Assembly (NCBI GenBank): GCA_025465135.1
Contig: JAODNA010000084.1
Span: 2,599-66,598 of the forward strand
DNA length: 64,000 nucleotides
Direction: 5' to 3'
Source of the DNA: Frankiales bacterium
GTDB taxonomy: Bacteria; Actinomycetota; Actinomycetes; Mycobacteriales; SCTD01
In this document: positions 1-36,991 of the stretch, one piece after another
How the letters are laid out: the number at the start of each line of letters is the position of its first letter
How positions within the stretch are numbered: position 1 is the stretch's first letter
Program-made: the position numbers and the translations under genes
The notes under the pieces: model-generated
The model's input: the letters and a program-made list of their open reading frames with translations, nothing else
Told to the model about the DNA's origin: nothing
Database searches by the model: none

Positions 1-597
1 GATGAGCTCTACCTGCTTGGTGGCCGTGCCGCCACGGACGAGGGTGATGTACGGCGCCGTTGCGCCGTCGACGGTCCACGGCCCCTTGGCGTAGGTGATC
101 CACTCGCGGTCGAAGAACGGCGTCTTGATCGGCGCCTCGGCGACCTCCCACTTCTTGCTCGCAGCGGTGTACCTCACGCCCTGCAGGTGGTCGCCCGTGT
201 AGGGGTCCCAGCCGATGCCGAAGATGTCGCCGCCGGGGCCGCCGACGAGGGCGCCCTCGCCGTTGTAGAGCGGGGTGAGGAAGTCGACCTGCGTCCACGT
301 CTTGCCGTGGTCGTCGCTGTAGTAGGGGTAGCTGCCGCCGTACTCCAGCAGCCGGTTGCCCAGCGTCGACACGTAGGTCTCGCAGCAGTTGCCGCCGGTC
401 GCCGTCCAGTGCCACGCGGTCTTGGTCACGTGACCCTTGGCGTCGAACGTGCGGTAGGCCGCGGCGTGGGACGTCGACGGGTAGGCCTTCGGCGTGGCCG
501 GGGCCCCCGGGATCGGCGGCCCGGCGATGGCGGAGCCGATCGCAAGGGCGGACAGGGCCGCAACGGCCAGCGAGAGGCGACGGGTACGACGGTTCAT
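1..597 (-). CDS. Secreted BNR/Asp-box repeat protein (sialidase-fold-like); its C-terminal part is cut by the window edge
   Basis: Absent from the ORF track because it runs off the edge. Reverse-strand ATG at 597 gives MNRRTRRLSLAVAALSALAIGSAIAGPP (signal peptide). An Asp-box SDDHGKTW is present. Frame checked at 300..241 (TWTQVDFLTPLYNGEGALVG). Confidence 0.7.
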   Translation of the reverse strand, partial: MNRRTRRLSLAVAALSALAIGSAIAGPPIPGAPATPKAYPSTSHAAAYRTFDAKGHVTKTAWHWTATGGNCCETYVSTLGNRLLEYGGSYPYYSDDHGKTWTQVDFLTPLYNGEGALVGGPGGDIFGIGWDPYTGDHLQGVRYTAASKKWEVAEAPIKTPFFDREWITYAKGPWTVDGATAPYITLVRGGTATKQVELI

Positions 598-18651: not shown

Positions 18652-20691
18652 TCAGGCCTGGCGCTGCAAGGGCGTGACCGCGGCGAGCGGCCGGCGGTAC
18701 TCCTCGAGCCACGACTCCACCTCATCCGCCGGCAGCGGTCGCGAGAGGTGGTAGCCCTGGATCACGTCGCAGCCCAGGGCCCTGAGCATGTTCCAGGTCT
18801 CGGCGTCCTCCACGCCCTCCGCCACCAGGCGCAGCCCGAGGTTGTGGCCGAGCTCGATCGTCGAGCGCACGATCACCGCGTCGTTGGAGTTCGTCGTCAT
18901 CGTGAACACGAAGGACTTGTCGATCTTGAGCTCGTTGGCCTCGAGGCGCTTGAGGTAGGAGAGCGAGGAGTAGCCGGTCCCGAAGTCGTCGATCGACAGC
19001 GAGACTCCGAGGTCGCGCAGCAGGCCCAGCACGGTCATCGTGCGCGTGGGATCGACCATGATCGTCGTCTCGGTCACCTCGAGCGTCAGTGACTCGGGCG
19101 GCACGCCCCATCGCCCGAGGAGCCCGGCGACCTGCCGCGGCAGCTCCAGATCTGTCAGGCAGCGCACGGAGATGTTGACCGCGACGCCGAGCGGCGTTCC
19201 GGCGTCCCGCAGCCTGCGTGCGAAGCACAGTGACTGGTCGAGCACCTCGAGCGTCAGCGCGCCGATCAGGCCGGTGTTCTCCGCGATGGGGATGAAGTCG
19301 TCCGGGTAGACGAGGCCGCGCGCCGGGTGCTGCCAGCGGACCAGGGCCTCCAGACCGACGAGGTCACCTGTCGCGGCGTCGCACTTGGGCTGGTAGTAGA
19401 CCCGCAGCTGCCCGTCGCTGACCCCCTCGCGGAGCTCGCCGAGCAGGGCGAGCTTCTCGACGCTGTGAAGGTCGCGCTCGGGCAGGTAGAACGCGTAGGT
19501 GCCGCGGTGCTCCTTCGCGGCGTAGAGCGCCACATCGGCGCGCTGCATCAGCGTCGTGACGTCCGAGCCGTGCTCCGGGGCGAGCGCGATGCCCACACTG
19601 GCCTGCACGTCCAGCCGCACTCCGTCGATGCTGAACGGCTGCATGAGGGCGGCGACGAGTCGCTGGGCGACGAGCTCCGCAGCGGCCCGCCCGTCGAGAT
19701 CACAGGCCAGTACGGCGAACTCGTCGCCACCCAGCCGGGCGACCGTGTCGCCTTCCCGCATGGCGGTCCGGAGCCGCGCGCCCACCTGCCGGAGCAGCTG
19801 GTCGCCGACGTAGTGGCCGAGGGTGTCGTTGATCTCCTTGAAGTGGTCCAGGTCGATCAGCAGCACCGCGGTGCCGACGGCGCTGCGCTCCGCCGCCTCG
19901 AGCGCGCGCCCGGTGCGGTCGCTGAGGTAGAGCCGGTTGGGAAGCCCCGTCAGTCCGTCGTGCAGGGCTTGGCGCTCGCGCTCGGCAGCGAGCTTCGCGC
20001 TGCGGTGGACGGCGGCGATCGGCAGCAGCATGAGGGGAAGCAGCAGCAGGGAGAAGCCGGTCGCGACCACGACGACCGGGGCGAAGGCGAGCAGGACGCC
20101 CGAGGTCGAGAGCTGGAAGCGCACGTCGTCGCGCAGGTGGGGCAGCACGGGCTTGTTCAGTGCCAGCGCGACGACGATGCCGGTCAGGCCGTTGTTGACG
20201 ATGAAGAACACCGCGCCCGCGGCGAGCGCGGGGACGACGTCGTGCACCTGCAGCGGCGTCGCGTCGGAGGCGAACGTCCGGTGGGTCAGCAGGCAGAACA
20301 CCATCCGCGTCACCGCGCCGGACAGGACCAGCTGGGCGTTGTTGAACAGGAGCCTCTGGAGGTTCTTGCGACGTCGGATGTCGTCGAGGCTGACGGCGGC
20401 GACCTGCGCGGCGAGCAGGACCCAGACCGGGCCGAGGATGGCCAGGGCGAGGATGAAGGTGCTGGCGATGGTGACCTCGTCGAGGTCGTCCTCACCGCGG
20501 GAGATCACGATGGGCTGGGACTCGCCGACCACCAGCAGGGCCGCGAGAACCAGCACCGTCAGGCTCGGGACCTCGACCCGTGCGGGCAGGTGCTGCACCA
20601 GCACGTCGGCGACCACGGCAGCGCCGGCGGCGATCACGGCGAACACGTAGGTGTTCAGCCGCGACGGCCGCAGTCGAGCCGCGAGCTGCAC
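18652..20691 (-). CDS. Membrane-anchored GGDEF-EAL protein (c-di-GMP synthase/phosphodiesterase)
   Basis: N-terminal multi-TM region, GGDEF (RLGGDEFAV) and EAL (EALVRW, DDFGTGYSSLSYL, KIDKSF). GTG 20691 is preceded by aggag with a 5-nt spacer. Confidence 0.9.
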   Translation of the reverse strand: MQLAARLRPSRLNTYVFAVIAAGAAVVADVLVQHLPARVEVPSLTVLVLAALLVVGESQPIVISRGEDDLDEVTIASTFILALAILGPVWVLLAAQVAAVSLDDIRRRKNLQRLLFNNAQLVLSGAVTRMVFCLLTHRTFASDATPLQVHDVVPALAAGAVFFIVNNGLTGIVVALALNKPVLPHLRDDVRFQLSTSGVLLAFAPVVVVATGFSLLLLPLMLLPIAAVHRSAKLAAERERQALHDGLTGLPNRLYLSDRTGRALEAAERSAVGTAVLLIDLDHFKEINDTLGHYVGDQLLRQVGARLRTAMREGDTVARLGGDEFAVLACDLDGRAAAELVAQRLVAALMQPFSIDGVRLDVQASVGIALAPEHGSDVTTLMQRADVALYAAKEHRGTYAFYLPERDLHSVEKLALLGELREGVSDGQLRVYYQPKCDAATGDLVGLEALVRWQHPARGLVYPDDFIPIAENTGLIGALTLEVLDQSLCFARRLRDAGTPLGVAVNISVRCLTDLELPRQVAGLLGRWGVPPESLTLEVTETTIMVDPTRTMTVLGLLRDLGVSLSIDDFGTGYSSLSYLKRLEANELKIDKSFVFTMTTNSNDAVIVRSTIELGHNLGLRLVAEGVEDAETWNMLRALGCDVIQGYHLSRPLPADEVESWLEEYRRPLAAVTPLQRQA

Positions 20692-20933
20692 GAGTGCTCC
20701 TGTCGGATCGGCGGGTTGCCCCGGGGTCCCGGCCGGGCGCACCCGGCAACCACGCGGGACAGGTCCCGCGCTAGGTATGTCGTCCGATACGCCCAGGTCT
20801 TGAGCCGCCGCGAGCCTGTTCCTCCCTCGTCCGCGCCGCACGCACCCCCCGAAAGGGGGACCGGAACTCACGGCTACACCTCCAGGCACGTCATGCCGAC
20901 ATATCCCTGTCGGACGAGCGGGAGGGGCGGCGG

Positions 20934-26747: not shown

Positions 26748-27295
26748 CAGCACGCCCAGCCCCGCCCCCAGCCACCGGAGCCCACCTCGTGTCCTACTTC
26801 GCCGCCGCGCTCGCCCGCACCGGAGAGAGCTGGTCCGGTGTCGAGGTGGACCTCGACGAGATCGAGGACATCGAGGCACTGACAGACCTGATGCGTGACC
26901 TCACCGGCGACGGCCCCGGACCTGCGCTGCTGATGCTGGAGGAGGACGACGAGTACGTCGCGATCGTCCGTGTCGACGGCGGCACCGGGGGGCTCGGGGA
27001 GCCGCGCGTCTTCCTGTCCGACCGCAGGGCCGTCCAGGGCAGCGACGTCGCCGCCATGCTCTGGGAGGAGGCCGACCCGGAGGATGACGAGGAGGAGGAC
27101 GACGACGAGGACGAAGGCACCCGGCCGGTCGCCGAACCCGTCGGCGACGCCGAGCTGCTCGCCGACCTCGGGACCCCGGGAAGCCAGCTCGTCGACCTCT
27201 GCGCGGAGGAGGGGCTGCTGCCGGCAGATGTCCTCACGACGGTCTGCGAGCGGGCCGGCTGCGCGGACGTGCTCGAGGAGCTCCGCGAGGCGTGA
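26744..27295 (+). CDS. tRNA adenosine deaminase-associated protein paralog (copy 2)
   Basis: Alignable with copy 1 (SWSGVEVDLDE...YVAIVRV...VFLSD...PVGDAELLADLG) and carries a poly-acidic insert. TTG 26744 overlaps the upstream stop. GTG 26789 is an alternative start. Confidence 0.65.
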   Translation: MTARPAPPPATGAHLVSYFAAALARTGESWSGVEVDLDEIEDIEALTDLMRDLTGDGPGPALLMLEEDDEYVAIVRVDGGTGGLGEPRVFLSDRRAVQGSDVAAMLWEEADPEDDEEEDDDEDEGTRPVAEPVGDAELLADLGTPGSQLVDLCAEEGLLPADVLTTVCERAGCADVLEELREA

Positions 27296-27750
27296 CGTCG
27301 TACGACGCCCTGATGCTCGTCGCCCTCGAGCAGGCTGAGCTCGCGGCGAGCCATGGCGACATCCCGGTCGGTGCCGTCGTGGCCGGCCCCGACGGGTCGG
27401 TGCTCGGATTCGGCTGCAACCGGCGCGAGGCCGCGAACGACCCCACCGCCCACGCCGAGGTGCTCGCGCTGCGGGCCGCCGGCGCGACGCTCGGCAGCTG
27501 GCGGCTCAACAGCTGCACGCTCATCGTGACCCTGGAGCCCTGCACGATGTGCGCCGGTGCCGCCGTGCTCGCCCGGGTCGACCGCATCGTCTACGGCGCC
27601 GCCGACCCGAAGGCCGGCGCAGCCGGATCGATGTGGGACGTCGTACGCGATCGGCGCCTCAACCACCGCCCCGAGGTGCTCGGGGGCGTGCTCGCGTCGG
27701 AGTGCTCCGATCGCCTGCTCGCCTTCTTCGGGCGGGACACGGTCGGCTGA
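27292..27750 (+). CDS. tadA: tRNA-specific adenosine deaminase
   Basis: CDA zinc motifs HAEVLALR and PCTMCAGA. 152 aa. Confidence 0.93.
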   Translation: MTSYDALMLVALEQAELAASHGDIPVGAVVAGPDGSVLGFGCNRREAANDPTAHAEVLALRAAGATLGSWRLNSCTLIVTLEPCTMCAGAAVLARVDRIVYGAADPKAGAAGSMWDVVRDRRLNHRPEVLGGVLASECSDRLLAFFGRDTVG

Positions 27751-28050: not shown

Positions 28051-29607
28051 ATGACCTCTTTGAGCCCTGAGCTGGGCGTCCTCGGCGAGCCCGCCGAAGG
28101 CGCTGTGCGACGGTCCACCGGGACCCGCCTGGCCGTCGCCCTCGTCGCGTTCGTGACGGCGTGGATGGTCGGGGGCGTCCGGGCCACACCGGCGTTCGCC
28201 GATGACGGTGGGGACCGGGGCGACAGCACGTCAGCCGGCGAGCACCGTGACGCACAGAGCCGCGACGGTGGCAGCGGCGACGCACAGAGCCGCGACCGTG
28301 GCAGCCGTGACGCACAGAGCCGCGACTCCTCGGGGGGCGCGGGTTCGTGCTCCTGCCCGAGCGAGACGTCGAAGGGCACCACGCAGACGAAGGCCGACTC
28401 TGCGTCGTCCGACCACGCGAAGTCCTCGACCAAGGGTGACAGCGCGAAGAGCTCGACCAAGGGTGAGAGCGCGAAGTCCTCGGCCAAGGGAGAGAGCGCG
28501 AAGTCCTCGGCCAAGGGAGAGAGCGCGAAGTCCTCGGCCAAGGGTGAGAGCGCGAAGTCCTCGACCAAGGGTGAGAGCGCGAAGAGCTCGGCCAAGGGTG
28601 AGAGCGCGAAGTCCTCGGCCAAGCCGACATCGGGTTCGTCCGAGCAGGCGGCCACCTCGGACAGCCACACCACGACGACCCAGTCCGCATCGAGCGGCGA
28701 CACCCAGCGCAAGCCGAGTCGGCGCCCTGCCCACAACAGTGACGCCTGCCTGCCGACGCCGGTGCCGTACGGGCCGAAGAAGCTCGACGACAGCCATGAC
28801 AGCGAGGGCAAGGCCGGCGACGCCGGCAAGCAGGACGACAGCAAGGACGTGAGTGGGTCGGCCAGCGCCGGTGCGGCGTCGGGTGCTGCCGGCACGTCGG
28901 GCAAGGGCACCGGTGGCAAGGCCAGCGGCGGTAGCGCGAACGGCACGACGACCGGGACGACGACGGGTGCCGGTTCTGCCGGTGCGGCGTCGGGTGCTGC
29001 CGGCACGTCGGGCAAGGGCACCGGTGGCAAGGCCAGCGGCGGTAGCGCGAACGGCACGACCGGTACCTCAACGAGTGCGGGTAGCGCGGGCAACACGGTG
29101 CCGAGTGCCGGTAGCGCGGGCAACACGGTGCCGAGTGCCGGTTCCGCGGGCAACACGGTGCCGAGCGCCGGTAGCGCGGGCAACACGGTGCCGAGTGCCG
29201 GCAGTGCGGCTGTTCCCGGTACGACGACTGTTCCCGGTACGACGACGGGCACGGGTACCACGACGGGCACGGGCACGACGACGGGCACGGGCACGACGAC
29301 CGGCACCGCATCGGGCTCCGGCACGACCCCGGTCACCGCGCCGGTCACTGCGCCGGGTACGACGACGACCGGCACGACGGCGGGTACGGCGACGGTCGGC
29401 TCGACCACCGGCGGCGCGGCGGCACCGGCCACGGCCGGCACGGCGTCCGTACCGCTCGGCGGCACGGCGGTTGCCCCGGCGGCCCGTCCGGCAGCGCTCC
29501 CGTTCACGGGTGGCGGCGAGCTGCCGGAGGAGATCGCCCTCGGCGGCATCCTGATCGCGCTGGGAGCTGCCGTGCGCCGCATCGGGCGCCCGCGCACGAC
29601 CGCGTAG
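28051..29607 (+). CDS. LPXTG-anchored low-complexity repeat surface protein
   Basis: N-terminal TM/signal segment. Repeats KGESAKSSA x~8, GSAGNTVPSA x4 and a duplicated ~38-aa Gly/Ser/Thr block. C-terminus is LPFTGGG + hydrophobic segment + RRIGRPR. Confidence 0.85.
   Translation: MTSLSPELGVLGEPAEGAVRRSTGTRLAVALVAFVTAWMVGGVRATPAFADDGGDRGDSTSAGEHRDAQSRDGGSGDAQSRDRGSRDAQSRDSSGGAGSCSCPSETSKGTTQTKADSASSDHAKSSTKGDSAKSSTKGESAKSSAKGESAKSSAKGESAKSSAKGESAKSSTKGESAKSSAKGESAKSSAKPTSGSSEQAATSDSHTTTTQSASSGDTQRKPSRRPAHNSDACLPTPVPYGPKKLDDSHDSEGKAGDAGKQDDSKDVSGSASAGAASGAAGTSGKGTGGKASGGSANGTTTGTTTGAGSAGAASGAAGTSGKGTGGKASGGSANGTTGTSTSAGSAGNTVPSAGSAGNTVPSAGSAGNTVPSAGSAGNTVPSAGSAAVPGTTTVPGTTTGTGTTTGTGTTTGTGTTTGTASGSGTTPVTAPVTAPGTTTTGTTAGTATVGSTTGGAAAPATAGTASVPLGGTAVAPAARPAALPFTGGGELPEEIALGGILIALGAAVRRIGRPRTTA
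28415..28623 (+). repeat. Intragenic 27-bp tandem repeat (~7.5 copies)
   Basis: Unit aagggtgagagcgcgaagtcctcggcc with minor variants. It is in frame and encodes KGESAKSSA. Confidence 0.9.
29079..29198 (+). repeat. Intragenic 30-bp tandem repeat (4 copies)
   Basis: Unit ggtagcgcgggcaacacggtgccgagtgcc, encoding GSAGNTVPSA. Confidence 0.9.
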
Positions 29608-29662: not shown

Positions 29663-31018
29663 TCAGGGCGCGGTCGTCTGCAGACGCTCCATGGCGAGGG
29701 TCAGCAGGCTGTCCGCCGCCCCCTCCCATCCTTCGCTCTGGCCCCACATGAGGACCATGGCCCGGTTGGCGAGGTGCACCGCCTCGTAGATCGGGAAGCG
29801 GTGGACCGTCGCGTCGGGTCGCAGGGCCAGGTAGCGCTGCAGGAACGCTCGGCGCGCCTGCTCTGCGGCGTCGCTCTCCTCCCAGGTCTCCGGCATCGAC
29901 GGCACGGCATGCGCGCACCACTTGCCGAGATCCCAGCTCGTCTCGGATCGCCCGACGTCCTCGAAGTCCACGAGCGTGAAACGACCGTTATCCTCGAGGA
30001 ACTGGTCGTACTTCAGGTCTCCGTGCGTGAGCACCTCCTCCTCGGCGGCCGCCTTCGGGAGCCGGGACCGGAGCTTGGCGAGCAGGTCACGCAGGAGCCG
30101 CCCGCCGTCGGGGTGCACGAGGGACATCGCGTGCGCGACGTCATCGAGGCGGGCGATCTCCGGTGCGAGGCTCAGCTCGCTGTGCGACCCGAGGCCGCTG
30201 CCGTGCATCGTCGCGAGCGCCTCCGCCGCCGCGACGGCGCCGGCGTGGAACCGCGGGTCGGTCCGGTCGCTGCTCAACGGCAGGCCGGGTGCCGCCTGCT
30301 CCAGGTGCAGCGCCAGCTCGCCGTCGTACGCCAGCGGCTCGACGACGGAGAGCAGCCCGTCCGAGTGCTGGCTCAGCGTCCACAGGGCCTGCATGGTCTC
30401 GTGCAGGTCGCGGCCGCGGTCGCCGCGGTAGACCTTCCCGTAGACGACCCGCTCCGCAGCTCCGGGCTTGTCGACGACCCGGTAGCGCACGGCCGCGCTG
30501 ATCTCCGGCAGGTACCGGACCAGCTCGACGTGGATCCGGGCCGGCGGCGTCTTCGGCGAGTAGCGCGGCGCGAGCAGGCGGCGGACGGCAGGCGGGTCCG
30601 TCGCTGTCGCCAGGGTCGGCAGGTGCGGGTCGACGGGGTAGAACCACCAGGCGTGCTGGGAGGCATCAACGAGTACCGGGTAGCCGAGTCCGTCCAGCGG
30701 CCGGCAGGGTGCGTCGTCGTACAGCTCCGACAGCCACGTCCGGTAGCCCTGCCAGTCCGTCGTCTGGAAGCACGCGCGCGCGACCAGGGTGAGGCTCCGC
30801 GTCTCCGTGGTCCCGCGGGCCGGCCGTTCGATCCGAACGCGGTACGACGCCCAGTAGGCGACCGGCGGCTCCAGCCGGACCCCGAGACGACGAACGCCGG
30901 ACAGCGTCCAGCCGGTCCCGTCGATCGCCACGGCAGCGAGGGCACGGGCGGCGGCGGTGTTGGTCGCCCGCTGCACCAGGTCGAGCGTCAGCCCACCGGA
31001 TGGGCTCGGGCCCGGCAT
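29663..31018 (-). CDS. Aminoglycoside-phosphotransferase/protein-kinase-like fold protein
   Basis: Brenner-type catalytic motif THGDLKYDQF and VDFEDVG. ATG 31018 is preceded by ggaggag. It is embedded among the LPXTG genes on the opposite strand. Confidence 0.75.
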   Translation of the reverse strand: MPGPSPSGGLTLDLVQRATNTAAARALAAVAIDGTGWTLSGVRRLGVRLEPPVAYWASYRVRIERPARGTTETRSLTLVARACFQTTDWQGYRTWLSELYDDAPCRPLDGLGYPVLVDASQHAWWFYPVDPHLPTLATATDPPAVRRLLAPRYSPKTPPARIHVELVRYLPEISAAVRYRVVDKPGAAERVVYGKVYRGDRGRDLHETMQALWTLSQHSDGLLSVVEPLAYDGELALHLEQAAPGLPLSSDRTDPRFHAGAVAAAEALATMHGSGLGSHSELSLAPEIARLDDVAHAMSLVHPDGGRLLRDLLAKLRSRLPKAAAEEEVLTHGDLKYDQFLEDNGRFTLVDFEDVGRSETSWDLGKWCAHAVPSMPETWEESDAAEQARRAFLQRYLALRPDATVHRFPIYEAVHLANRAMVLMWGQSEGWEGAADSLLTLAMERLQTTAP

Positions 31019-31211
31019 GCGCACTCCTCCGTCGGCGGCACCGAGCATGCCACGCGGCCCGCCGCGCAGACCTCCCAAGAATTACGCCATTCGGCCCACT
31101 ACTTTCGGGCCCCCTGTTGGTTACTCTCTGTGTCGATCGACGTCGCTCAGGGTGACTCTTCGGGGCTGGCCGGGGCGACGACGGTGATCGGCGGGCACTC
31201 GCCCGCCGACA

Positions 31212-31506
31212 GAAGGAAGCACTGATCCGGACGGTCCACACCGACGACGCGCAGGCGTCGCACGGAGAGACACGGTCGCCTAGGCCGCCCGGGGAGCTAG
31301 TGGCGAGACCGACCTGCCCAGTGAACAGGACGTCCTCGGACGCCCCGCTCATCGGACGCAGAGGCCTTGATCCGCGTGGTCCTCACCGACGCCCCCGGGC
31401 GCACGGAGGAACACGGTCGCCAGACCGCGCGGGGAGCCAGTGGCGAGACCGGCTCGTTCGGTGGCGGTGCGTCGTGGACGCCCTCTACTTGGACGGGAGT
31501 CCCCGC
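31212..31506 (+). promoter_or_regulatory. Conserved structured 5' leader, copy 1 (two tandem ~105-145-nt units), candidate cis-regulatory RNA
   Basis: Near-identical to 32799-33106. Invariant core cggggagcYagtggcgagaccg at 31290-31311 and 31430-31451. Stem ggtcgcc/ggcga(g)acc. Variable hairpins carry compensatory changes. Confidence 0.6.
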
Positions 31507-32478
31507 ATGCGCACCAACGACACGACGTGCACGTCCAGCTCTACCCGCCGCGCGCCGGTCGCTGCGACGCTCGCGGCGGTGCTGCTCAGCCTTCCTTTGA
31601 CGCTCGCGCTCAGCGGCACCGCCTGGGCCTGCACCTCCTCCGACGGGGGTAGCAGCCAGGGCAGCAAGGGTGGTGGCGACAGCAAGGGCGGCGACCACGA
31701 GGGCAGCAAGGGTGGTGGCGACAGCAAGGGCGGCAGCACCGGTGGCGGCGACCACGAGGGCAGCAAGGGTGGAGGCGACAGCAAGGGCGGCAGCACCGGT
31801 GGCGGCGACCACGAGGGCAACAAGGGTGGTGGCGACAGCAAGGGCGGCAGCACCGGTGGCGGCGACCACGAGGGCAGCACCGGTGGCGGCGACCACGAGG
31901 GCAGCACCGGTGGTGGCGACAGCAAGGGCGGCAGCACTGGTGGCGGCGACCACGAGGGCAGCAGCACGGGCGGCGACGACCACCACGGCGGTAGCACCGG
32001 TGGCGGCGCGACCGGCACCACGGGCGACGACGACCACCACGGCAGCAGCACCGGTGGTAACAGCACGACCGGTGGCACGACGGGCACCACGGGCGGCGGC
32101 CACAGCGGTGGCAGCACCGGCGGGACCAGCACGACCGGCACGAGCATCGGCGGGGGCACGAGTGGTGGGGGCAGCATCACGCCGCCGGTCGTGCACCCGG
32201 TCGTGCACCCGGTCGTGCACCCGGTCGTGCGCCCGGTCGTGCGCCCCGTCACGCGGCCGGTCACGCACCCCGTGACGCGGCCGGTCATCGGGGGTACCGC
32301 GGGAGCGCCGGCCTCGGGTCCGGTCGTCACGGTCCGCGCGGCGACGGCGCGGGCTGCGCAGCCGTCCGCCCTGCCGTTCACCGGCGCGGACCCGTCCATC
32401 CCGCTCGGCATCTCGCTCGTCCTGCTCGGCAGTGGCGTGATCCTCACCGGTGCGGCGCGCCGGCGCGAGCACGCCTGA
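31507..32478 (+). CDS. LPXTG-anchored His/Asp/Gly-rich repeat surface protein
   Basis: Signal peptide MRTNDTT...LALSGTAWA. GGGDSKGGSTGGGDHEGSK repeats, DDHH motifs and a PVVH/PVVR/PVTR 4-aa repeat. C-terminus LPFTGAD + hydrophobic segment + RRREHA. ATG follows ggacgggag. Confidence 0.85.
   Translation: MRTNDTTCTSSSTRRAPVAATLAAVLLSLPLTLALSGTAWACTSSDGGSSQGSKGGGDSKGGDHEGSKGGGDSKGGSTGGGDHEGSKGGGDSKGGSTGGGDHEGNKGGGDSKGGSTGGGDHEGSTGGGDHEGSTGGGDSKGGSTGGGDHEGSSTGGDDHHGGSTGGGATGTTGDDDHHGSSTGGNSTTGGTTGTTGGGHSGGSTGGTSTTGTSIGGGTSGGGSITPPVVHPVVHPVVHPVVRPVVRPVTRPVTHPVTRPVIGGTAGAPASGPVVTVRAATARAAQPSALPFTGADPSIPLGISLVLLGSGVILTGAARRREHA
31666..31965 (+). repeat. Intragenic degenerate tandem repeats (~57-60 bp unit)
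   Basis: Repeated ggtggtggcgacagcaagggcggcagcaccggtggcggcgaccacgagggcagcaag. Confidence 0.8.
32185..32290 (+). repeat. Intragenic 12-bp tandem repeat (~9 copies)
   Basis: ccggtcgtgcac/ccggtcgtgcgc/ccggtcacgc.. encoding (PVVH)3(PVVR)2(PVTR/H)... Confidence 0.85.
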
Positions 32479-32492
32479 TCCAGGGAACTGCA

Positions 32493-32527
32493 CCGACGGC
32501 CCCCCGCTGCGAGCTGGGGGCCGTCGG
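32493..32527. terminator. GC-rich hairpin after the His-rich LPXTG gene
   Basis: ccgacggccccc...gggggccgtcgg, 15 nt after the stop. No T-tract. Confidence 0.55.
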
Positions 32528-32798
32528 CATGCCCCGGCTGTCCAGGCGGGTCACGCGCGAACCCGTTCCACTACAGCGCGTGATGTGCGCCCGGGTCCGG
32601 GCCGCGTGCCCCGCCTGCCCCGGGTGGGGAGTTTTTGCCCGGATGTCGCCTTTTGCGGCAGCAAGTTACGCCATTCGGCCCACTACTTCCGGGCCACTCT
32701 GTAGTTACTCTGTGTGTCTGCTGCAGCGCAGAAGGTGAATCTTTTTGACTCACCCCACGTGATGAAGCGGCAACTGCGGGTATACGCCCGTCGTTGAG

Positions 32799-33106
32799 CA
32801 AGGAAGCGTTGATCCGGATGGTCCACACCGGTTCGCCCCCTTCGGGGACGTGAGCACGGAGAGACTCGGTCGCCTAGACCGTTCGGGGAGCTAGTGGCGA
32901 GACCGACCTGCCCCAGTGAGCAGGGCGTCCTTCGGGCGTCCAGTCACCGGATGCAGAGGCTGTGATCCGCACGGTCCTCACCGACGCCGAACCTGGCGCA
33001 CGGAGGAAGACGGTCGCCAAGACCGCGCGGGGAGCTAGTGGCGAGACCGGCTCGTCCGGTAGCTGGACATCTTCCGATGCCCTCTACCTCGGACGGGAGT
33101 CCCCGC
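32799..33106 (+). promoter_or_regulatory. Conserved structured 5' leader, copy 2, candidate cis-regulatory RNA
   Basis: Aligns with 31212-31506. Cores at 32884-32905 and 33028-33049. Same ggacgggagtccccgc immediately before the start codon. Confidence 0.6.
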
Positions 33107-34714
33107 GTGCGCACCACCACCAGCACTTCAGGCATCACCGGCAAGGCCCGCCGCGCGCCCGTCGTCACGACGCTCGCGGCCCTCTGCCTCGCCCTTCCCA
33201 TGAGCGGCATCTTCGGTGGCACGGCTTTCGCCACTAACGACAAGGCCGCCTCGGATCACGGCGCGTCCTCCGCGCCCGGCCAGCAGAAGAAGGCCGACCC
33301 GGGCAGCAGCAGCGCCACCACCGCGAGCACCGACTCGAGCACGAGCAGCGCCAGCAGCTCCGCGGACAGCACGCCCGGCAACAGCGACCACAGCCAGGGC
33401 AACGCCTCCACGAGCGGCAGCTACAACCAGCCGCAGCCCTACTCGAACGCGGACAGCAACAACACCGGCGCCAACGACACGTCGGCCTCCAACCCCTACC
33501 GCTCGACCCGCGACGGGTCGCCGTCGATGAACGGCAACGGCGGTGGCAACGCGGGCGGCAAGCCATGCGCCGGCTGTGTGGGCAAGGCCGACAACAAGAA
33601 CCCGAAGGGTCAGGCGCCCGGCGGCTCGGACCACAACAACGGCTACGAGTGCGATGGCAACAACGGCATCGGAAAGGGCAACCCGGCCCACACCGGCTGC
33701 ACCACCGGCGGGACGACACCGCCTCCGCCGAGCTGTGTCCCGACGGCGGCCAACCACCACTGCGACACCGACACGCCTCCGCCGGGCTGTGTCCCGACGG
33801 CGGCCAACCACCACTGCGACACCGACAAGGCCTGCCCGAACGGCAGCCCGATGCCGGCCAGCGGCGACTGCGGGGGTGGTGACCACGGCAACAAGAACGA
33901 CAAGGTCACCATCTGCCACGCGACCGGCTCCGCGAGCAACCCCTTCGTCGTCATCACGCCGAACAAGAACGGCGTCGTGCACGGCCACGCCAAGCACGGT
34001 GACGACATCATCCCGCCGTTCGACTACAACGACCACGGCGTGACGAAGCACTTCCCCGGCCTGAACTGGACGGCTGCCAACCAGGCCGCGTTCCACAACG
34101 GCTGCAGCGTGCCGGCAGCCCCGAAGTGCCCGAACGGCTCGGCGATGCCGGCCTCAGGGAACATCGCAGACTGCACCCCGCCGGTTGTCTGCCCGGCCGG
34201 TTCGACGATGGTCAACGGCGTCTGCACCCCGCCGGTCGTGTGCCCGGCCGGTTCGACGATGGTCAACGGCGTCTGCACCCCGCCGGTCGTGTGCCCGTCC
34301 GGTTCGACGATGGTCAACGGCGTCTGCACCCCGCCGGTCGTCTGCCCTGAGGGAACGCAGATGGCACCTGGGGCGACCAGCTGCACGCCGCCGCTGGTGT
34401 GCCCCAACGGTGCGATGGTCGGACCCATCGTGCCCGGCACGGCTCGTCCGGGCTGCCCGATCGAGGGGGGCACCGGCAACGGCGCGCAGACCCCGCCGGT
34501 GTCCGCACCCGTCCCGACCGTCATCGGTCAGGGCACCACGCCGCAGGCCGTGCAGGGCGGCACGCCCACGCCGGCCGTCGTGTCGGCCCGGCCGACGGCG
34601 CTGCCCTTCACCGGCAGCAACGCCGGCCTGCTCGCCGAGGGCGCTGCGCTGATGCTCCTCATCGGCACCGGCCTCGTCGTGGCCGCTCGCCGGAAGGTGG
34701 CTCTCGCCGCCTAG
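33107..34714 (+). CDS. LPXTG-anchored Cys-rich repeat surface protein
   Basis: GTG 33107 aligned with ATG 31507. Signal peptide ...IFGGTAFA, Ser/Asn-rich region, CVPTAANHHCDTD x2, ICHATGSASNPFVVITP motif, CTPPVVCPAGSTMVNGV x3-4. C-terminus LPFTGSN + hydrophobic segment + RRK. Confidence 0.85.
   Translation: MRTTTSTSGITGKARRAPVVTTLAALCLALPMSGIFGGTAFATNDKAASDHGASSAPGQQKKADPGSSSATTASTDSSTSSASSSADSTPGNSDHSQGNASTSGSYNQPQPYSNADSNNTGANDTSASNPYRSTRDGSPSMNGNGGGNAGGKPCAGCVGKADNKNPKGQAPGGSDHNNGYECDGNNGIGKGNPAHTGCTTGGTTPPPPSCVPTAANHHCDTDTPPPGCVPTAANHHCDTDKACPNGSPMPASGDCGGGDHGNKNDKVTICHATGSASNPFVVITPNKNGVVHGHAKHGDDIIPPFDYNDHGVTKHFPGLNWTAANQAAFHNGCSVPAAPKCPNGSAMPASGNIADCTPPVVCPAGSTMVNGVCTPPVVCPAGSTMVNGVCTPPVVCPSGSTMVNGVCTPPVVCPEGTQMAPGATSCTPPLVCPNGAMVGPIVPGTARPGCPIEGGTGNGAQTPPVSAPVPTVIGQGTTPQAVQGGTPTPAVVSARPTALPFTGSNAGLLAEGAALMLLIGTGLVVAARRKVALAA
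34171..34380 (+). repeat. Intragenic 51-bp tandem repeat (3 full copies plus diverged copies)
   Basis: ctgcaccccgccggtcgtgtgcccggccggttcgacgatggtcaacggcgt. Period 51 (34171, 34222, 34273). Confidence 0.85.
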
Positions 34715-34766: not shown

Positions 34767-34774
34767 CGTTCCGG

Positions 34775-34860
34775 CGGAGGATGCGAGATTCGAACTCGCG
34801 AGGGGTTGCCCCCAACACGCTTTCCAAGCGTGCGCCATAGGCCAACTAGGCGAATCCTCC
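34775..34860 (-). tRNA. tRNA-Ser (anticodon GGA), CCA not encoded
   Basis: The reverse complement gives acceptor ggaggat/atcctcc, anticodon loop ttGGAaa, a long variable arm and T-loop gagttcgaatctc. Confidence 0.92.
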
Positions 34861-34954
34861 TGGGTCCCCCCAGGGGGGCGGACGCGGTTGATCCTAGCCG
34901 CGCCGTACGCGGTGGAAAGCGTCGACCGCCGGTGCCCGCCGTACGTCTAGAGTG

Positions 34955-35056
34955 ACGTCAGACCCCTCGTGCGGCGCCCATCTCGCTGAACTCCCCCAGG
35001 GCCGGAAGGCAGCAAGGGCAGGCGGGCTCTGGGCGGGTGTGCGAGGGGTCCTTACT
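34955..35056 (+). ncRNA. ffs: Signal recognition particle RNA (small bacterial type, 4.5S-like); ends approximate
   Basis: Conserved domain IV sequence cagggccggaaggcagcaagggcagg. Closing helix gacccctcg...cgaggggtc. Canonical position between tRNA-Ser and dnaX. Confidence 0.85.
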
Positions 35057-35074
35057 TCCGCAGGAGGACCGCAC

Positions 35075-36991
35075 GTGAGCCTGGCGCTGTATCGCAAGTA
35101 CCGGCCCGGGACGTTCGCGGAGCTCAAGGGCCAGGAGCACGTCACCGGCCCCCTGCAGCAGGCACTGCGCAACGGCCGCATCCACCACGCTTACCTGTTC
35201 AGCGGGCCGCGTGGCTGCGGCAAGACCTCCAGCGCGCGCATCCTCGCGCGCAGCCTGAACTGCGAGAAGGGCCCGACGCCCGACCCCTGCGGCGTCTGCG
35301 ACTCGTGCGTCGCGCTCGCGCCCAACGGCCCGGGCAGCCTCGACGTCGTCGAGATCGACGCGGCTTCGCACGGCGGTGTCGACGACGCCCGCGACCTGAG
35401 GGACCGCGCCTTCTACTCGCCGGTCGCGAGCCGCTTCAAGGTCTACATCATCGACGAGGCCCACATGGTCTCCCGGGAGGGCTTCAACGCCCTGTTGAAA
35501 CTGGTCGAGGAGCCACCGGAGTTCCTGCGGTTCGTGTTCGCGACGACGGAGCCCGAGAAGGTGCTCGCGACGATCCGCTCGCGGACGCACCACGACCCCT
35601 TCCGGCTGATGCCCCGCCGGGAGCTGACCGAGCTGCTGCAGGACGTCGTCGACAAGGAGGGCATCGCCGTCGACAGGACGGTGCTGCCACTCGTCGTGCG
35701 CGCGGCCGCCGGCTCTGCCCGTGACGGCCTGTCGATCCTCGACCAGGTGCTGGCATCGGCCGGGGCCGACGGCGTGACGCGGGAGGCAGCGGCCGGTCTG
35801 CTCGGTGTCACTCCTGACACCCTGCTCGACGACGTGGTCGACGCGTTCGCTGCCCGTGACAGCGCTGCGGTCTTCGGGGCCGTCGACCTGGTGATGGAGC
35901 GCGGTCACGACCCACGGCGCTTCGCGCAGGACGTCTTGGAGCGGCTACGCGACCTCGTCGTTCTGGACGCCGTGCCCGACGCCGGCGACAAGGGACTGCT
36001 CGACTGCCCCGCCGACCAGCTCGAGCGGATGGGCCGGCAGGCCACGATGCTCGGCACCGCCGGCCTCTCGCGTGCGGCCGACCTGTTCCACGAGGGCCTG
36101 ACCGAGATGCGCGGTACGACGGCGCCGCGCCTGCTGCTCGAGCTCGTGTGCGCCCGCGTGCTCCTCCCAGCTGCTGCGCACGACGCCGGCTCGGTGCTCA
36201 CGCGCATCGAGCGGCTGGAGCGCCGCCTCGACATCGCGACCCCGAGCTCGGGAGCGGTGCCGGCAGCGCACCCCCCTTCCGTCGCGTCAGAGGCCCCACG
36301 CGGCAGCGGTGCACCCGTCGACGGACGCACCGACCCGCAACCGCCGTCGGAGTCGCAGTCGAAGCCGCAGTCGCAGTCGAAGCCGCAGCCGCAGTCGCCG
36401 CCGGCTCCGGTGACGTGGCCGAGCACGGCGCCGCTGGGCGGGGACGACGCCGCTGCACCGGAGACCGCACCGACGGACGCATCCGCGATCGCCACCGCTG
36501 CGGCTGCACCGGAGGACGCGCCGACGGCTGGATTGGACGCGGCGGCGCTGCGCCGGTCCTGGGACGCGGTGCTCGATGCGGTGAAGACGCGCAAGCGCAC
36601 GACCCACGCACGTCTGCTCGACGCGCAGGTGCTGCACGTGCGCGGTCGCCTGCTCACCATGGGCTTCACGACTCCCACCCTGGCCAAGCAGTTCAAGGAC
36701 AGCGTCAACATCGAGGTGCTCCGCGAGGCGCTGGCCGAGGCGATCGGGGCGGACCTCGACGTCGACTGCGTGGTGGCAGGAGCGGCCGCGCCGCCGCCGA
36801 GCACGCCGACGTCGCAGGCGGCCGGTCCACCGCCCACGGCGCACGAGGGCTTCGCTCCGGGCGACGAGGCTGTTGCGGAAGACCCGGACGCACCGCCTGC
36901 GCCGGACCGTGTCCTGAACGGGGAGGACGCCGCCTTGCGTCTCATCGAGAGCGAGCTCGGTGGCAAGGTCGTCGGAACCGTCGGCGAGTAG
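35075..36991 (+). CDS. dnaX: DNA polymerase III subunits gamma/tau
   Basis: VSLALYRKYRPGTFAELKGQEHV, GPRGCGKTS, Zn module CGVCDSC, IIDEAHM. GTG 35075 after caggagg. The upstream part of the track ORF covers the SRP RNA. Confidence 0.95.
   Translation: MSLALYRKYRPGTFAELKGQEHVTGPLQQALRNGRIHHAYLFSGPRGCGKTSSARILARSLNCEKGPTPDPCGVCDSCVALAPNGPGSLDVVEIDAASHGGVDDARDLRDRAFYSPVASRFKVYIIDEAHMVSREGFNALLKLVEEPPEFLRFVFATTEPEKVLATIRSRTHHDPFRLMPRRELTELLQDVVDKEGIAVDRTVLPLVVRAAAGSARDGLSILDQVLASAGADGVTREAAAGLLGVTPDTLLDDVVDAFAARDSAAVFGAVDLVMERGHDPRRFAQDVLERLRDLVVLDAVPDAGDKGLLDCPADQLERMGRQATMLGTAGLSRAADLFHEGLTEMRGTTAPRLLLELVCARVLLPAAAHDAGSVLTRIERLERRLDIATPSSGAVPAAHPPSVASEAPRGSGAPVDGRTDPQPPSESQSKPQSQSKPQPQSPPAPVTWPSTAPLGGDDAAAPETAPTDASAIATAAAAPEDAPTAGLDAAALRRSWDAVLDAVKTRKRTTHARLLDAQVLHVRGRLLTMGFTTPTLAKQFKDSVNIEVLREALAEAIGADLDVDCVVAGAAAPPPSTPTSQAAGPPPTAHEGFAPGDEAVAEDPDAPPAPDRVLNGEDAALRLIESELGGKVVGTVGE

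Follow-up and report, generated by a model that had tools for sequence, protein, structure and literature searches.

We present an analysis of two adjacent surface-protein genes and of the 5' untranslated regions (5' UTRs) before them in a stretch of 64,000 nucleotides (nt) of a Frankiales bacterium (assembly GCA_025465135.1, contig JAODNA010000084.1, positions 2,599 to 66,598), hereafter called the window. Each of the two leaders is a 5' UTR with two tandem aptamers of the c-di-GMP-II-GAG family (Rfam RF03169; c-di-GMP, cyclic di-guanosine monophosphate), which is a variant of the class II c-di-GMP riboswitch, and this identity of the RNA is almost certain. The genes behind them, gene A (31507-32478) and gene B (33107-34714), encode predicted sortase (LPXTG-type) substrates. 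On the whole, we read each leader as a tandem c-di-GMP-II-GAG doublet that would exert translational ON control of a surface protein, and to this reading, its mechanism included, we give a probability of roughly 60%. Coordinates are those of the window, and features lie on the + strand unless marked (-).

The identity of the RNA comes from Rfam 15, with which the entire window was scanned at gathering thresholds (40 bits for RF03169). There are six matches, and four of them are RF03169 (clan CL00127), all on the + strand and all spanning model positions 1-86 of 86, with scores of 50.0-62.7 bits and E-values of 4e-10 to 7e-7 for the whole window. These are aptamer A1 at 31206-31323 (50.0 bits) and aptamer A2 at 31350-31463 (62.7 bits, E 4e-10) in leader A, and aptamer B1 at 32793-32917 (53.5 bits) and aptamer B2 at 32946-33060 (53.7 bits) in leader B. 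A covariance model of our own, R1, built from the four window copies, scores them at 116.1, 124.2, 121.0 and 128.7 bits, respectively. A permissive Rfam scan of the leader region gives nothing else credible, and the clan relatives score lower and are out-competed by the GAG model. The first-pass annotation had taken the leaders for an undescribed RNA, a view to be given up on a significant match to Rfam; all four units of about 115-125 nt lie above the gathering cutoff, and the RNA is a known one. Its description of a non-coding, structured, cis-regulatory RNA of riboswitch type agrees well with the RF03169 matches and with a conservation that tracks the paired helices, and its speculation about c-di-GMP led to the correct Rfam clan.

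Each aptamer is composed of the helices P1, P2 (3 bp) and P3 (8 bp) around an invariant core, GGGGAGC-N-AGUGGCGAGACCG. In all four copies the loop CGGUCGCC is complementary to GGCG-AG-ACCG (CGGU with ACCG and CGCC with GGCG, leaving an AG bulge) in the manner of a pseudoknot, of which the 3' strand is fixed by the search pattern; the two strands are at 31273-31280 and 31302-31311 in aptamer A1, and at 31414-31421 and 31442-31451 in aptamer A2. The segment GGC-GAG-ACCG is unchanged in the four copies, and the GAG model is the best of its clan; we take the three nucleotides meant by the name "GAG" to be those placed here. The window copies thus share with RF03169 a full-length match at gathering level, the P1-P2-P3 arrangement, the pseudoknot complementarity between loop and 3' strand, the GGGGAGC-AGUGGCGAGACCG core and a site in the 5' UTR on the sense strand. 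They differ from the model in coming as doublets with a weak P1 in the first aptamer, and in an insertion of 27-38 nt in the P3 loop, which the model treats as an insert. CACCG and GCACGGAG border the insertion, which is formed by a CCG:CGG helix and a hairpin with a different sequence in each of the four copies, and which is found in about 68 of 112 homologues among the matches listed.

The similarity of the two leaders is far beyond chance, because the RF03169 matches have E-values of 4e-10 to 7e-7 and the core motif occurs in the window in the four leader copies only. Aligned with MAFFT, 31060-31530 and 32644-33130 have a mean column identity of 86% with scattered indels of 1-9 nt, which is consistent with the near base-for-base likeness noticed in the first-pass annotation. 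The identical 29-mer GGGGAGCTAGTGGCGAGACCGACCTGCCC is present at 31291-31319 and 32885-32913, the second halves of the leaders have GACCGCGCGGGGAGC and AGTGGCGAGACCGGCTCGT in common, and GGACGGGAGTCCCCGC abuts both ATG 31507 and GTG 33107, all as had been described. The shared leader is therefore real, but its similarity starts further upstream than had been thought, at a promoter-like block of about 60 nt (31081-31135 and 32665-32719). What had been missed is the repeat within each leader, an internal tandem duplication of a unit of about 144 nt (repeat families D10-D14), which results in four copies of one element.

It is very improbable that the conserved region is an N-terminal extension or a leader peptide, or a leader bound by a protein and not a ligand-binding RNA. 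Both leaders are indeed traversed by open frames (31300.. and 33038..), but these begin at a GTG within the invariant core AGTGGCGAG, which belongs to aptamer 1 in leader A and to aptamer 2 in leader B, and the same spurious GTG start (offset -24) is present in most related loci, that is, throughout the family. Any common frame is broken by the indels of 1-9 nt, in accordance with the earlier argument that a shared frame does not explain the conservation; it is on the base-paired helices that the conservation falls, and a covariance model of a riboswitch family matches the sequences at gathering level.

To see the element in a wider range of genomes, a species-representative genome collection was scanned with a core pattern of 19 specified bases. 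The core motif is found in at least 118 stretches, nearly all of them from Actinomycetota, so that the element recurs beyond this genome, a possibility that the first-pass annotation had raised. Among the matches listed, the carriers include Frankiales/Frankiaceae, Nitriliruptoraceae, Acidimicrobiia, metagenome-assembled genomes (MAGs) of Mycobacteriales, Modestobacter, Geodermatophilus, Nakamurella, Kitasatospora and Planomonospora. Run on the matched loci, model R1 finds 128 aptamers in the listed loci, and an Rfam re-check confirms RF03169 in 18 related loci. In the alignment of 112 homologues, 90.3% of the cells pair, compared with 29-44% when the partners are slid by 1-3 columns; compensatory changes on both sides are seen in 22 of 24 pairs, and none of 500 shuffles reaches the observed values. 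The P1-P2-P3 helices are supported by this covariation.

Among the 120 arrays in the matches listed, 12 are doublets, and these allow the age of the two window copies to be judged. In the alignment of the 12 doublets, leader A is closest to those of loci L036 (82%) and L103 (80%), and leader B to those of L082 (88%) and L067 (84%), while A and B are 78% identical to each other. The separation is clearest in the expression platform alone, with 83-85% in the A group and 94% in the B group against 74% between A and B. Loci L103 and L082 come from MAG BP_342 (JAWWOH01), and L036 and L067 from MAG Frankiaceae 3_4_m_bin13 (JAENVS01), on different contigs in each; from the 3' end of gene B through dnaX, the window is 77-86% identical in nucleotides to these two MAGs. 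Because each leader groups with orthologues of other genomes rather than with the other, the two are old paralogues kept in several genomes and not the product of a recent local duplication. That they are a recent segmental duplication, conserved through youth and not through function, is hardly credible. The two units do lie side by side and resemble each other in promoter, leader, signal peptide and anchor, but each leader is nearer to leaders of other genomes than to its neighbour, with the widest gap in the platform; moreover, the orthologous genes lie on different contigs in the related genomes, and the family extends to at least 118 stretches with compensatory changes. The first-pass annotation would have dropped its idea for an element conserved nowhere else and duplicated recently; the element is widespread and its two copies are old.

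The genes that follow the leaders are both translated as secreted proteins. Gene A encodes 323 amino acids (aa) with repeats rich in G, D, H, S and K, a PVVH/PVTR stalk, LPFTG, a hydrophobic segment and an RRR tail. Nearly all of it is of low complexity (31640-32290), with repeats of 27/30 nt encoding the His/Asp-rich GGGD(H/S)(E/K)G(S/N)K/ST, and 12-nt repeats for PVVH/PVVR/PVTR precede the anchor; its orthologues with doublet leaders are in L103 and L036. Gene B encodes a Cys-rich protein of 535 aa with TPPVVCP repeats, LPFTG, a hydrophobic segment and an RRK tail, and has orthologues in L082, L067 and L087. The C-termini, ALPFTGADPSIPLGISLVLLGSGVILTGAARRREHA in gene A and ALPFTGSNAGLLAEGAALMLLIGTGLVVAARRKVALAA in gene B, both consist of ALPFTG followed by a hydrophobic segment and then a basic tail, and both N-termini have an R-rich n-region and a hydrophobic h-region, so the translations argue for sortase substrates. 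The first-pass annotation had called the two products unrelated. This holds for the central passenger regions, which differ, but not for the ends: the signal peptides are 45% identical over 51 aa (E 3e-7), and the Pro-rich stalk with the LPFTG anchor is 34% identical over 139 aa (E 5e-6). Searches of Pfam and NCBIfam give no family for gene A, gene B or the Cys-rich module, except for a sub-threshold Gram_pos_anchor match in gene B (E 0.008, 16.6 bits against a cutoff of 20). The Cys module, STRDGSPS..GKPCAGCVGKADNKNPxGQ..NNGYECDxNxGIGxxNPAHTGC, at about aa 133-205 of gene B (33500-33720), is, as DNA, the part of the gene with the widest conservation, and 18 of the 114 products encoded behind RF03169 aptamers contain it.

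An overall view of the downstream genes is consistent with this picture. In the 120 arrays among the matches listed, a start codon preceded by a Shine-Dalgarno (SD) sequence typically stands 40-57 nt past the last aptamer. By simple rules, 102 of the 114 downstream products have a signal-peptide-like N-terminus, and L[PAS]x[TSA]G with a hydrophobic tail is found in 40, many of the others being cut at the locus ends. Pfam finds little on 77 products: DUF11 (7), DUF5979 (5), family-2 glycosyltransferases (3), an extracytoplasmic function (ECF) sigma factor and RcpC. The element therefore precedes many different secreted proteins, and the earlier suggestion of metal sensing that had been drawn from the His-rich product of gene A has no support.

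The expression platform has the same order after the second aptamer in both leaders: a variable hairpin, the pyrimidine tract CCCUCUAC, and a 16-mer, GGACGGGAG-UCCCCGC, that reaches up to the start codon. In platform A (31464-31506) these are the hairpin GCGUC-GUG-GACGC (31469-31481), CCCUCU (31481-31486), the SD box GGACGGGAG (31491-31499) and the spacer UCCCCGC (31500-31506); in platform B (33062-33106), the hairpin GGACAUC-UUCC-GAUGCCC (33065-33082), CCCUCU (33080-33085), the SD box GGACGGGAG (33091-33099) and the spacer UCCCCGC (33100-33106). The start codons are 43 and 45 nt beyond the second aptamers of A and B, respectively. Of the 12 doublets, 9 share the 16-mer GGACGGGAGUCCCCGC without a change, though the platforms are 50-94% identical and the coding sequences diverge, and GGACGG(G)AG recurs in many singlets. 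In addition, the 16-mer has a complement in the 3' half of aptamer 2, GGACGGG matching CUCGUCC, which is the 3' strand of P1, and (G)UCCCCGC matching GCGGGGA(G). With RNAalifold and duplex folding, this pairing keeps to a single conserved register, at -19 to -26 kcal/mol; the same complementary segments are also present in the first aptamer, at -12 to -20 kcal/mol. The unconstrained minimum free energy (MFE) fold of leader B is this sequestered state, with 33091-33097 paired to the P1 3' strand at 33051-33057 and 33099-33107 paired to CGCGGGGAGC (33026-33035). In distant lineages both partners have changed together (UCCGUUC/GAACGGA, CCGUGUGG/CCACACGG and ACCCC/GGGGU), and in 82 arrays the P1 3' strand is more complementary to its own SD region than to permuted partners in 5000 of 5000 permutations.

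A terminator scan gives no terminator-like site inside either leader. Because of this, and because the 16-mer is conserved and complementary to the 3' half of the aptamer, these folding models make it probable that control is exerted at translation initiation rather than at transcription; Actinomycetota reportedly favour translational platforms (PMC12452182). In the unliganded, unfolded aptamer, the P1 3' strand CUCGUCC and the CGCGGGGAG junction would sequester the SD box and the spacer (GGACGGGAG-UCCCCGC). In the liganded aptamer the same strands would be locked into P1, P3 and the pseudoknot, and the ribosome-binding site would be free. A ligand that frees the ribosome-binding site would make each leader an ON switch, a direction that we favour by a modest degree, partly by analogy with class II switches. 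With two aptamers before one platform and the same complementary segments in the first, the response would be sharper, and both sites may need filling.

Several observations weigh against this reading. The permutation effect is small, 5.4 against 4.8 nt, and is inflated by the relatedness of the sequences. When the P1 3' strand is masked or left free and the RNA is folded from this strand to start+18, 84 arrays show no consistent change in how accessible the ribosome-binding site is predicted to be (mean -0.004, Wilcoxon p 0.39). In the MFE fold of leader A, a local hairpin of CCCUCU and GGAcGGG takes up the SD sequence, with the aptamer enforced or not, though MFE folds are unreliable at 72% G+C and do not include pseudoknot or ligand energies. 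Set against shuffled SD boxes, the duplexes have z-scores of just -0.0 to -2.0 at this G+C content, and since neither pairing partner varies among the doublets, there is no covariation to score. As to the aptamers themselves, P1 is well paired in the second ones (11 bp in A2) and poorly in the first (weak in A1) in the Rfam register, and the covariation counts come from an alignment fitted to the model. Finally, in the work of Weinberg and colleagues in PNAS in 2017, the GAG variant is said to have been set apart by differing ligand-contacting nucleotides, with its ligand left open.

Some of these points could also be read in favour of the opposite direction, in which the same RNA would be an OFF switch: the bound aptamer would free CCCUCU(AC) to sequester the SD box, and when no ligand is bound, CCUCU would form a helix with the AGAGG that aptamer 2 has in its 5' strand. 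The tract CCCUCUAC is conserved in the doublets and pairs with GGAcGGG in the MFE fold of leader A, AGAGG stands in the P1/P2 5' strand of second aptamers only, and the masking test has no net ON trend. We nevertheless think this version unlikely. The AGAGG:CCUCU helix would have no more than 5 bp and would have to bridge about 130 nt, and neither RNAfold nor RNAalifold ever picks it; singlets keep an SD box but are without AGAGG; and those class II switches that have been characterised ahead of adhesin genes are of the ON type (PMC6366702).

For the ligand, the likelier choice is a cyclic dinucleotide, most simply c-di-GMP itself, in which case high c-di-GMP would raise the output of wall-anchored surface proteins. 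A MASE9-GGDEF-EAL protein, a c-di-GMP-metabolising enzyme, is encoded at 18652-20889 (-) with EAL at E 8e-70 and GGDEF at E 5e-47, which substantiates the GGDEF-EAL gene that had been noted upstream, about 10 kb from the riboswitch units. The Rfam gathering scan gives no class I c-di-GMP riboswitch in the window. Locus L082, the closest relative, has a canonical one, RF01051 at 132-209 (-) with 59.9 bits, whose distance to the gene B orthologue is about 3 kb, and the target gene of this riboswitch runs off the locus end. It is less likely, though somewhat likelier than an OFF switch of the same RNA, that the GAG variant senses not c-di-GMP but a different signal, for example a linear or another cyclic dinucleotide, and that the surface proteins answer to that signal. 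The family is separate from canonical c-di-GMP-II in Rfam, the GAG model out-scores its clan relatives here, the defining paper reportedly proposed an altered specificity, and two classes in L082 could mean two signals. On the other hand, the regulon (LPXTG adhesin-like proteins, a pilus component and glycosyltransferases) is a classic c-di-GMP output, the GGDEF-EAL enzyme is encoded nearby, and C. difficile reads one ligand with class I and class II together (PMC6366702).

Taken jointly, three more novel readings have a low probability: that another nucleotide is sensed, that the two aptamers and one platform form an AND-like cooperative device, and that the whole module has spread as a cassette. 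In the second, either unliganded aptamer may be able to sequester the ribosome-binding site, which would give cooperative control. In the third, the promoter-like block, the doublet, the SD box and the signal peptide may have been placed together before differing passenger domains in Frankiales-like actinomycetes.

The boundaries of the two transcription units can be predicted as well. The promoter-like block of unit A (31081-31127) comprises AATTACGCCATTCGGCC, TACTTT (31100-31105), a 16-nt spacer and TACTCT (31122-31127), and aligns with that of unit B (32665-32711), which comprises AAGTTACGCCATTCGGCC, TACTTC (32684-32689), a 16-nt spacer and TACTCT (32706-32711). Transcription is predicted to start near 31134 in unit A and near 32718 in unit B. 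The composite motif AAG[GT]T-N20-45-TAC[TCA][CT]T has 7 matches in the 1.76 Mb of sequence covered, and 6 of them are upstream of doublet leaders, namely leader B and those of five other loci; leader A has the variant AAGAATTAC, outside this expression. As a looser pattern, AAGTT..-TA(C/G)TT-N16-19-TAC(T/C)(C/T)T, the block is seen in the window, L082, L091, L088, L036 and L103. A scan for sigma-70 consensus promoters gives none, and the composite block may hint at an activator site or at the use of an alternative sigma factor. A BldD box was also considered for GTTACTCT-TGTGTC and set aside, the match being partial and made by eye.

Besides the aptamers and platforms, the leaders have several hairpins. 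One read from the sequence, GGCGGGC-ACUC-GCCCGCC at 31190-31207, stands just 5' of aptamer A1, and of the hairpin before aptamer 1 RNAalifold retains 3 pairs across the 12 doublets with some compensatory change. Between the aptamers there is a hairpin in 12 of 12 doublets, of 5-7 bp and differing in sequence. In leader A it is GG-a-CGUC / CUCG / GACG-CC (31328-31344), with no SD sequence or U-tract after it, and in leader B, from the sequence and the doublet alignment, CGUCC-UUC-GGGCG (32926-32938). After gene A, the terminator scan finds an intrinsic-terminator-like hairpin with a 9-bp stem and the T-run AGTTTTTGCC at 32609-32638, which would separate transcription units A and B.

The riboswitch units are flanked by housekeeping genes, with a tadA-like deaminase gene upstream (27292-27750, MafB19-deam / dCMP_cyt_deam_1) and tRNA-Ser, ffs and dnaX downstream. 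A third surface-protein gene is at 28051-29607 and encodes 518 aa with SAKSS/GSAGNTVP/TTGTG repeats, followed by ALPFTGG, a hydrophobic segment and a basic tail; a search with filters off gives no degenerate fifth aptamer upstream of it. Between the LPXTG genes lies a divergent gene of 471 aa (29663-31078, -), with no Pfam family and with weak kinase-fold matches (LxmK-like, APH-like) far below the cutoffs. The order gene B, tRNA-Ser, ffs, dnaX is kept in L082, L067 and L087. The tRNA-Ser(GGA) gene is located by ARAGORN at 34773-34860 (-) and is absent from the list of the Rfam gathering scan of the window; over 87 nt it is 100% identical in L087 and 97.7% in L054. The longest dnaX open reading frame (34952-36991), with Pfam DNA_pol3_delta2 from aa 61, overlaps the signal recognition particle RNA at 34958-35056, and therefore the true dnaX start must be downstream of 35056, the 5' end of the frame being spurious. 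In MAG BP_342, a tRNA-Sec gene (RF01852, 73.1 bits; L103:4330-4420, -) adjoins the gene A orthologue.

The main effect of this analysis is to correct a label, as the element is already in Rfam and is not a new RNA class. For the GAG family, it adds that the element is widespread in Actinomycetota and stands almost exclusively before secreted or sortase-anchored proteins, with a short SD platform rather than a terminator, and that one lineage has conserved doublets with a common promoter-like element. The known c-di-GMP effectors in actinomycetes are proteins such as BldD and RsiG; if the GAG variant reads c-di-GMP, there would be a direct RNA route from c-di-GMP to the composition of the actinomycete cell surface. 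Since they provide two leaders whose targets are clear and in which an anti-SD helix is plausible, the loci are well-defined test cases for whether the GAG variant reads c-di-GMP and for cooperativity. In the literature we found no functional study of RF03169 or of class II switches in actinomycetes, nor, as far as we found, a description of actinobacterial one-platform doublets, of the P3-loop insertion or of the shared promoter-like block.

Among known systems, tandem arrangements come closest in Paraclostridium, where c-di-GMP-II doublets and triplets precede surface-anchor genes (COG4932; Sherlock et al. 2022, PMC9481103). Both there and here, two aptamers of the same class stand in series before a surface-anchor gene, and a sharper dose response is expected. 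The Paraclostridium tandems are pseudo-cooperative, being complete riboswitches each with its own platform (PMC9481103), whereas here the aptamers are separated by a hairpin of 5-7 bp and there is one platform. No platform of its own follows the first aptamer, and because only this short hairpin with no U-tract or SD sequence lies between the aptamers, the window leaders look like an architecture of two aptamers and one platform. The survey in PMC9481103 was based on Rfam 12.2 and leaves Actinobacteria unmentioned, and in a 2025 survey that includes the GAG model, the phyla with an enrichment of c-di-GMP tandems are Thermodesulfobacteriota and Deinococcota rather than Actinomycetota (PMC12452182). 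The glycine riboswitch resembles the leaders in architecture only, having two homologous aptamers (26-28 nt apart in our case) that feed a single platform; its fold and ligand are unrelated. [quoted passage not shown] With Cdi-2-1 and Cdi-2-3, which stand before the sortase substrates CD3246 and CD2831, the window leaders share the RNA clan, wall-anchored adhesin-like targets and, as we infer here, the ON direction, while they belong to another phylum and have a variant GAG core with a putative ligand. The C. difficile class II switch of pilA1 uses transcription termination (PMC6366702), and in this respect the window leaders differ, since they are without a terminator and their platform ends in an SD sequence.

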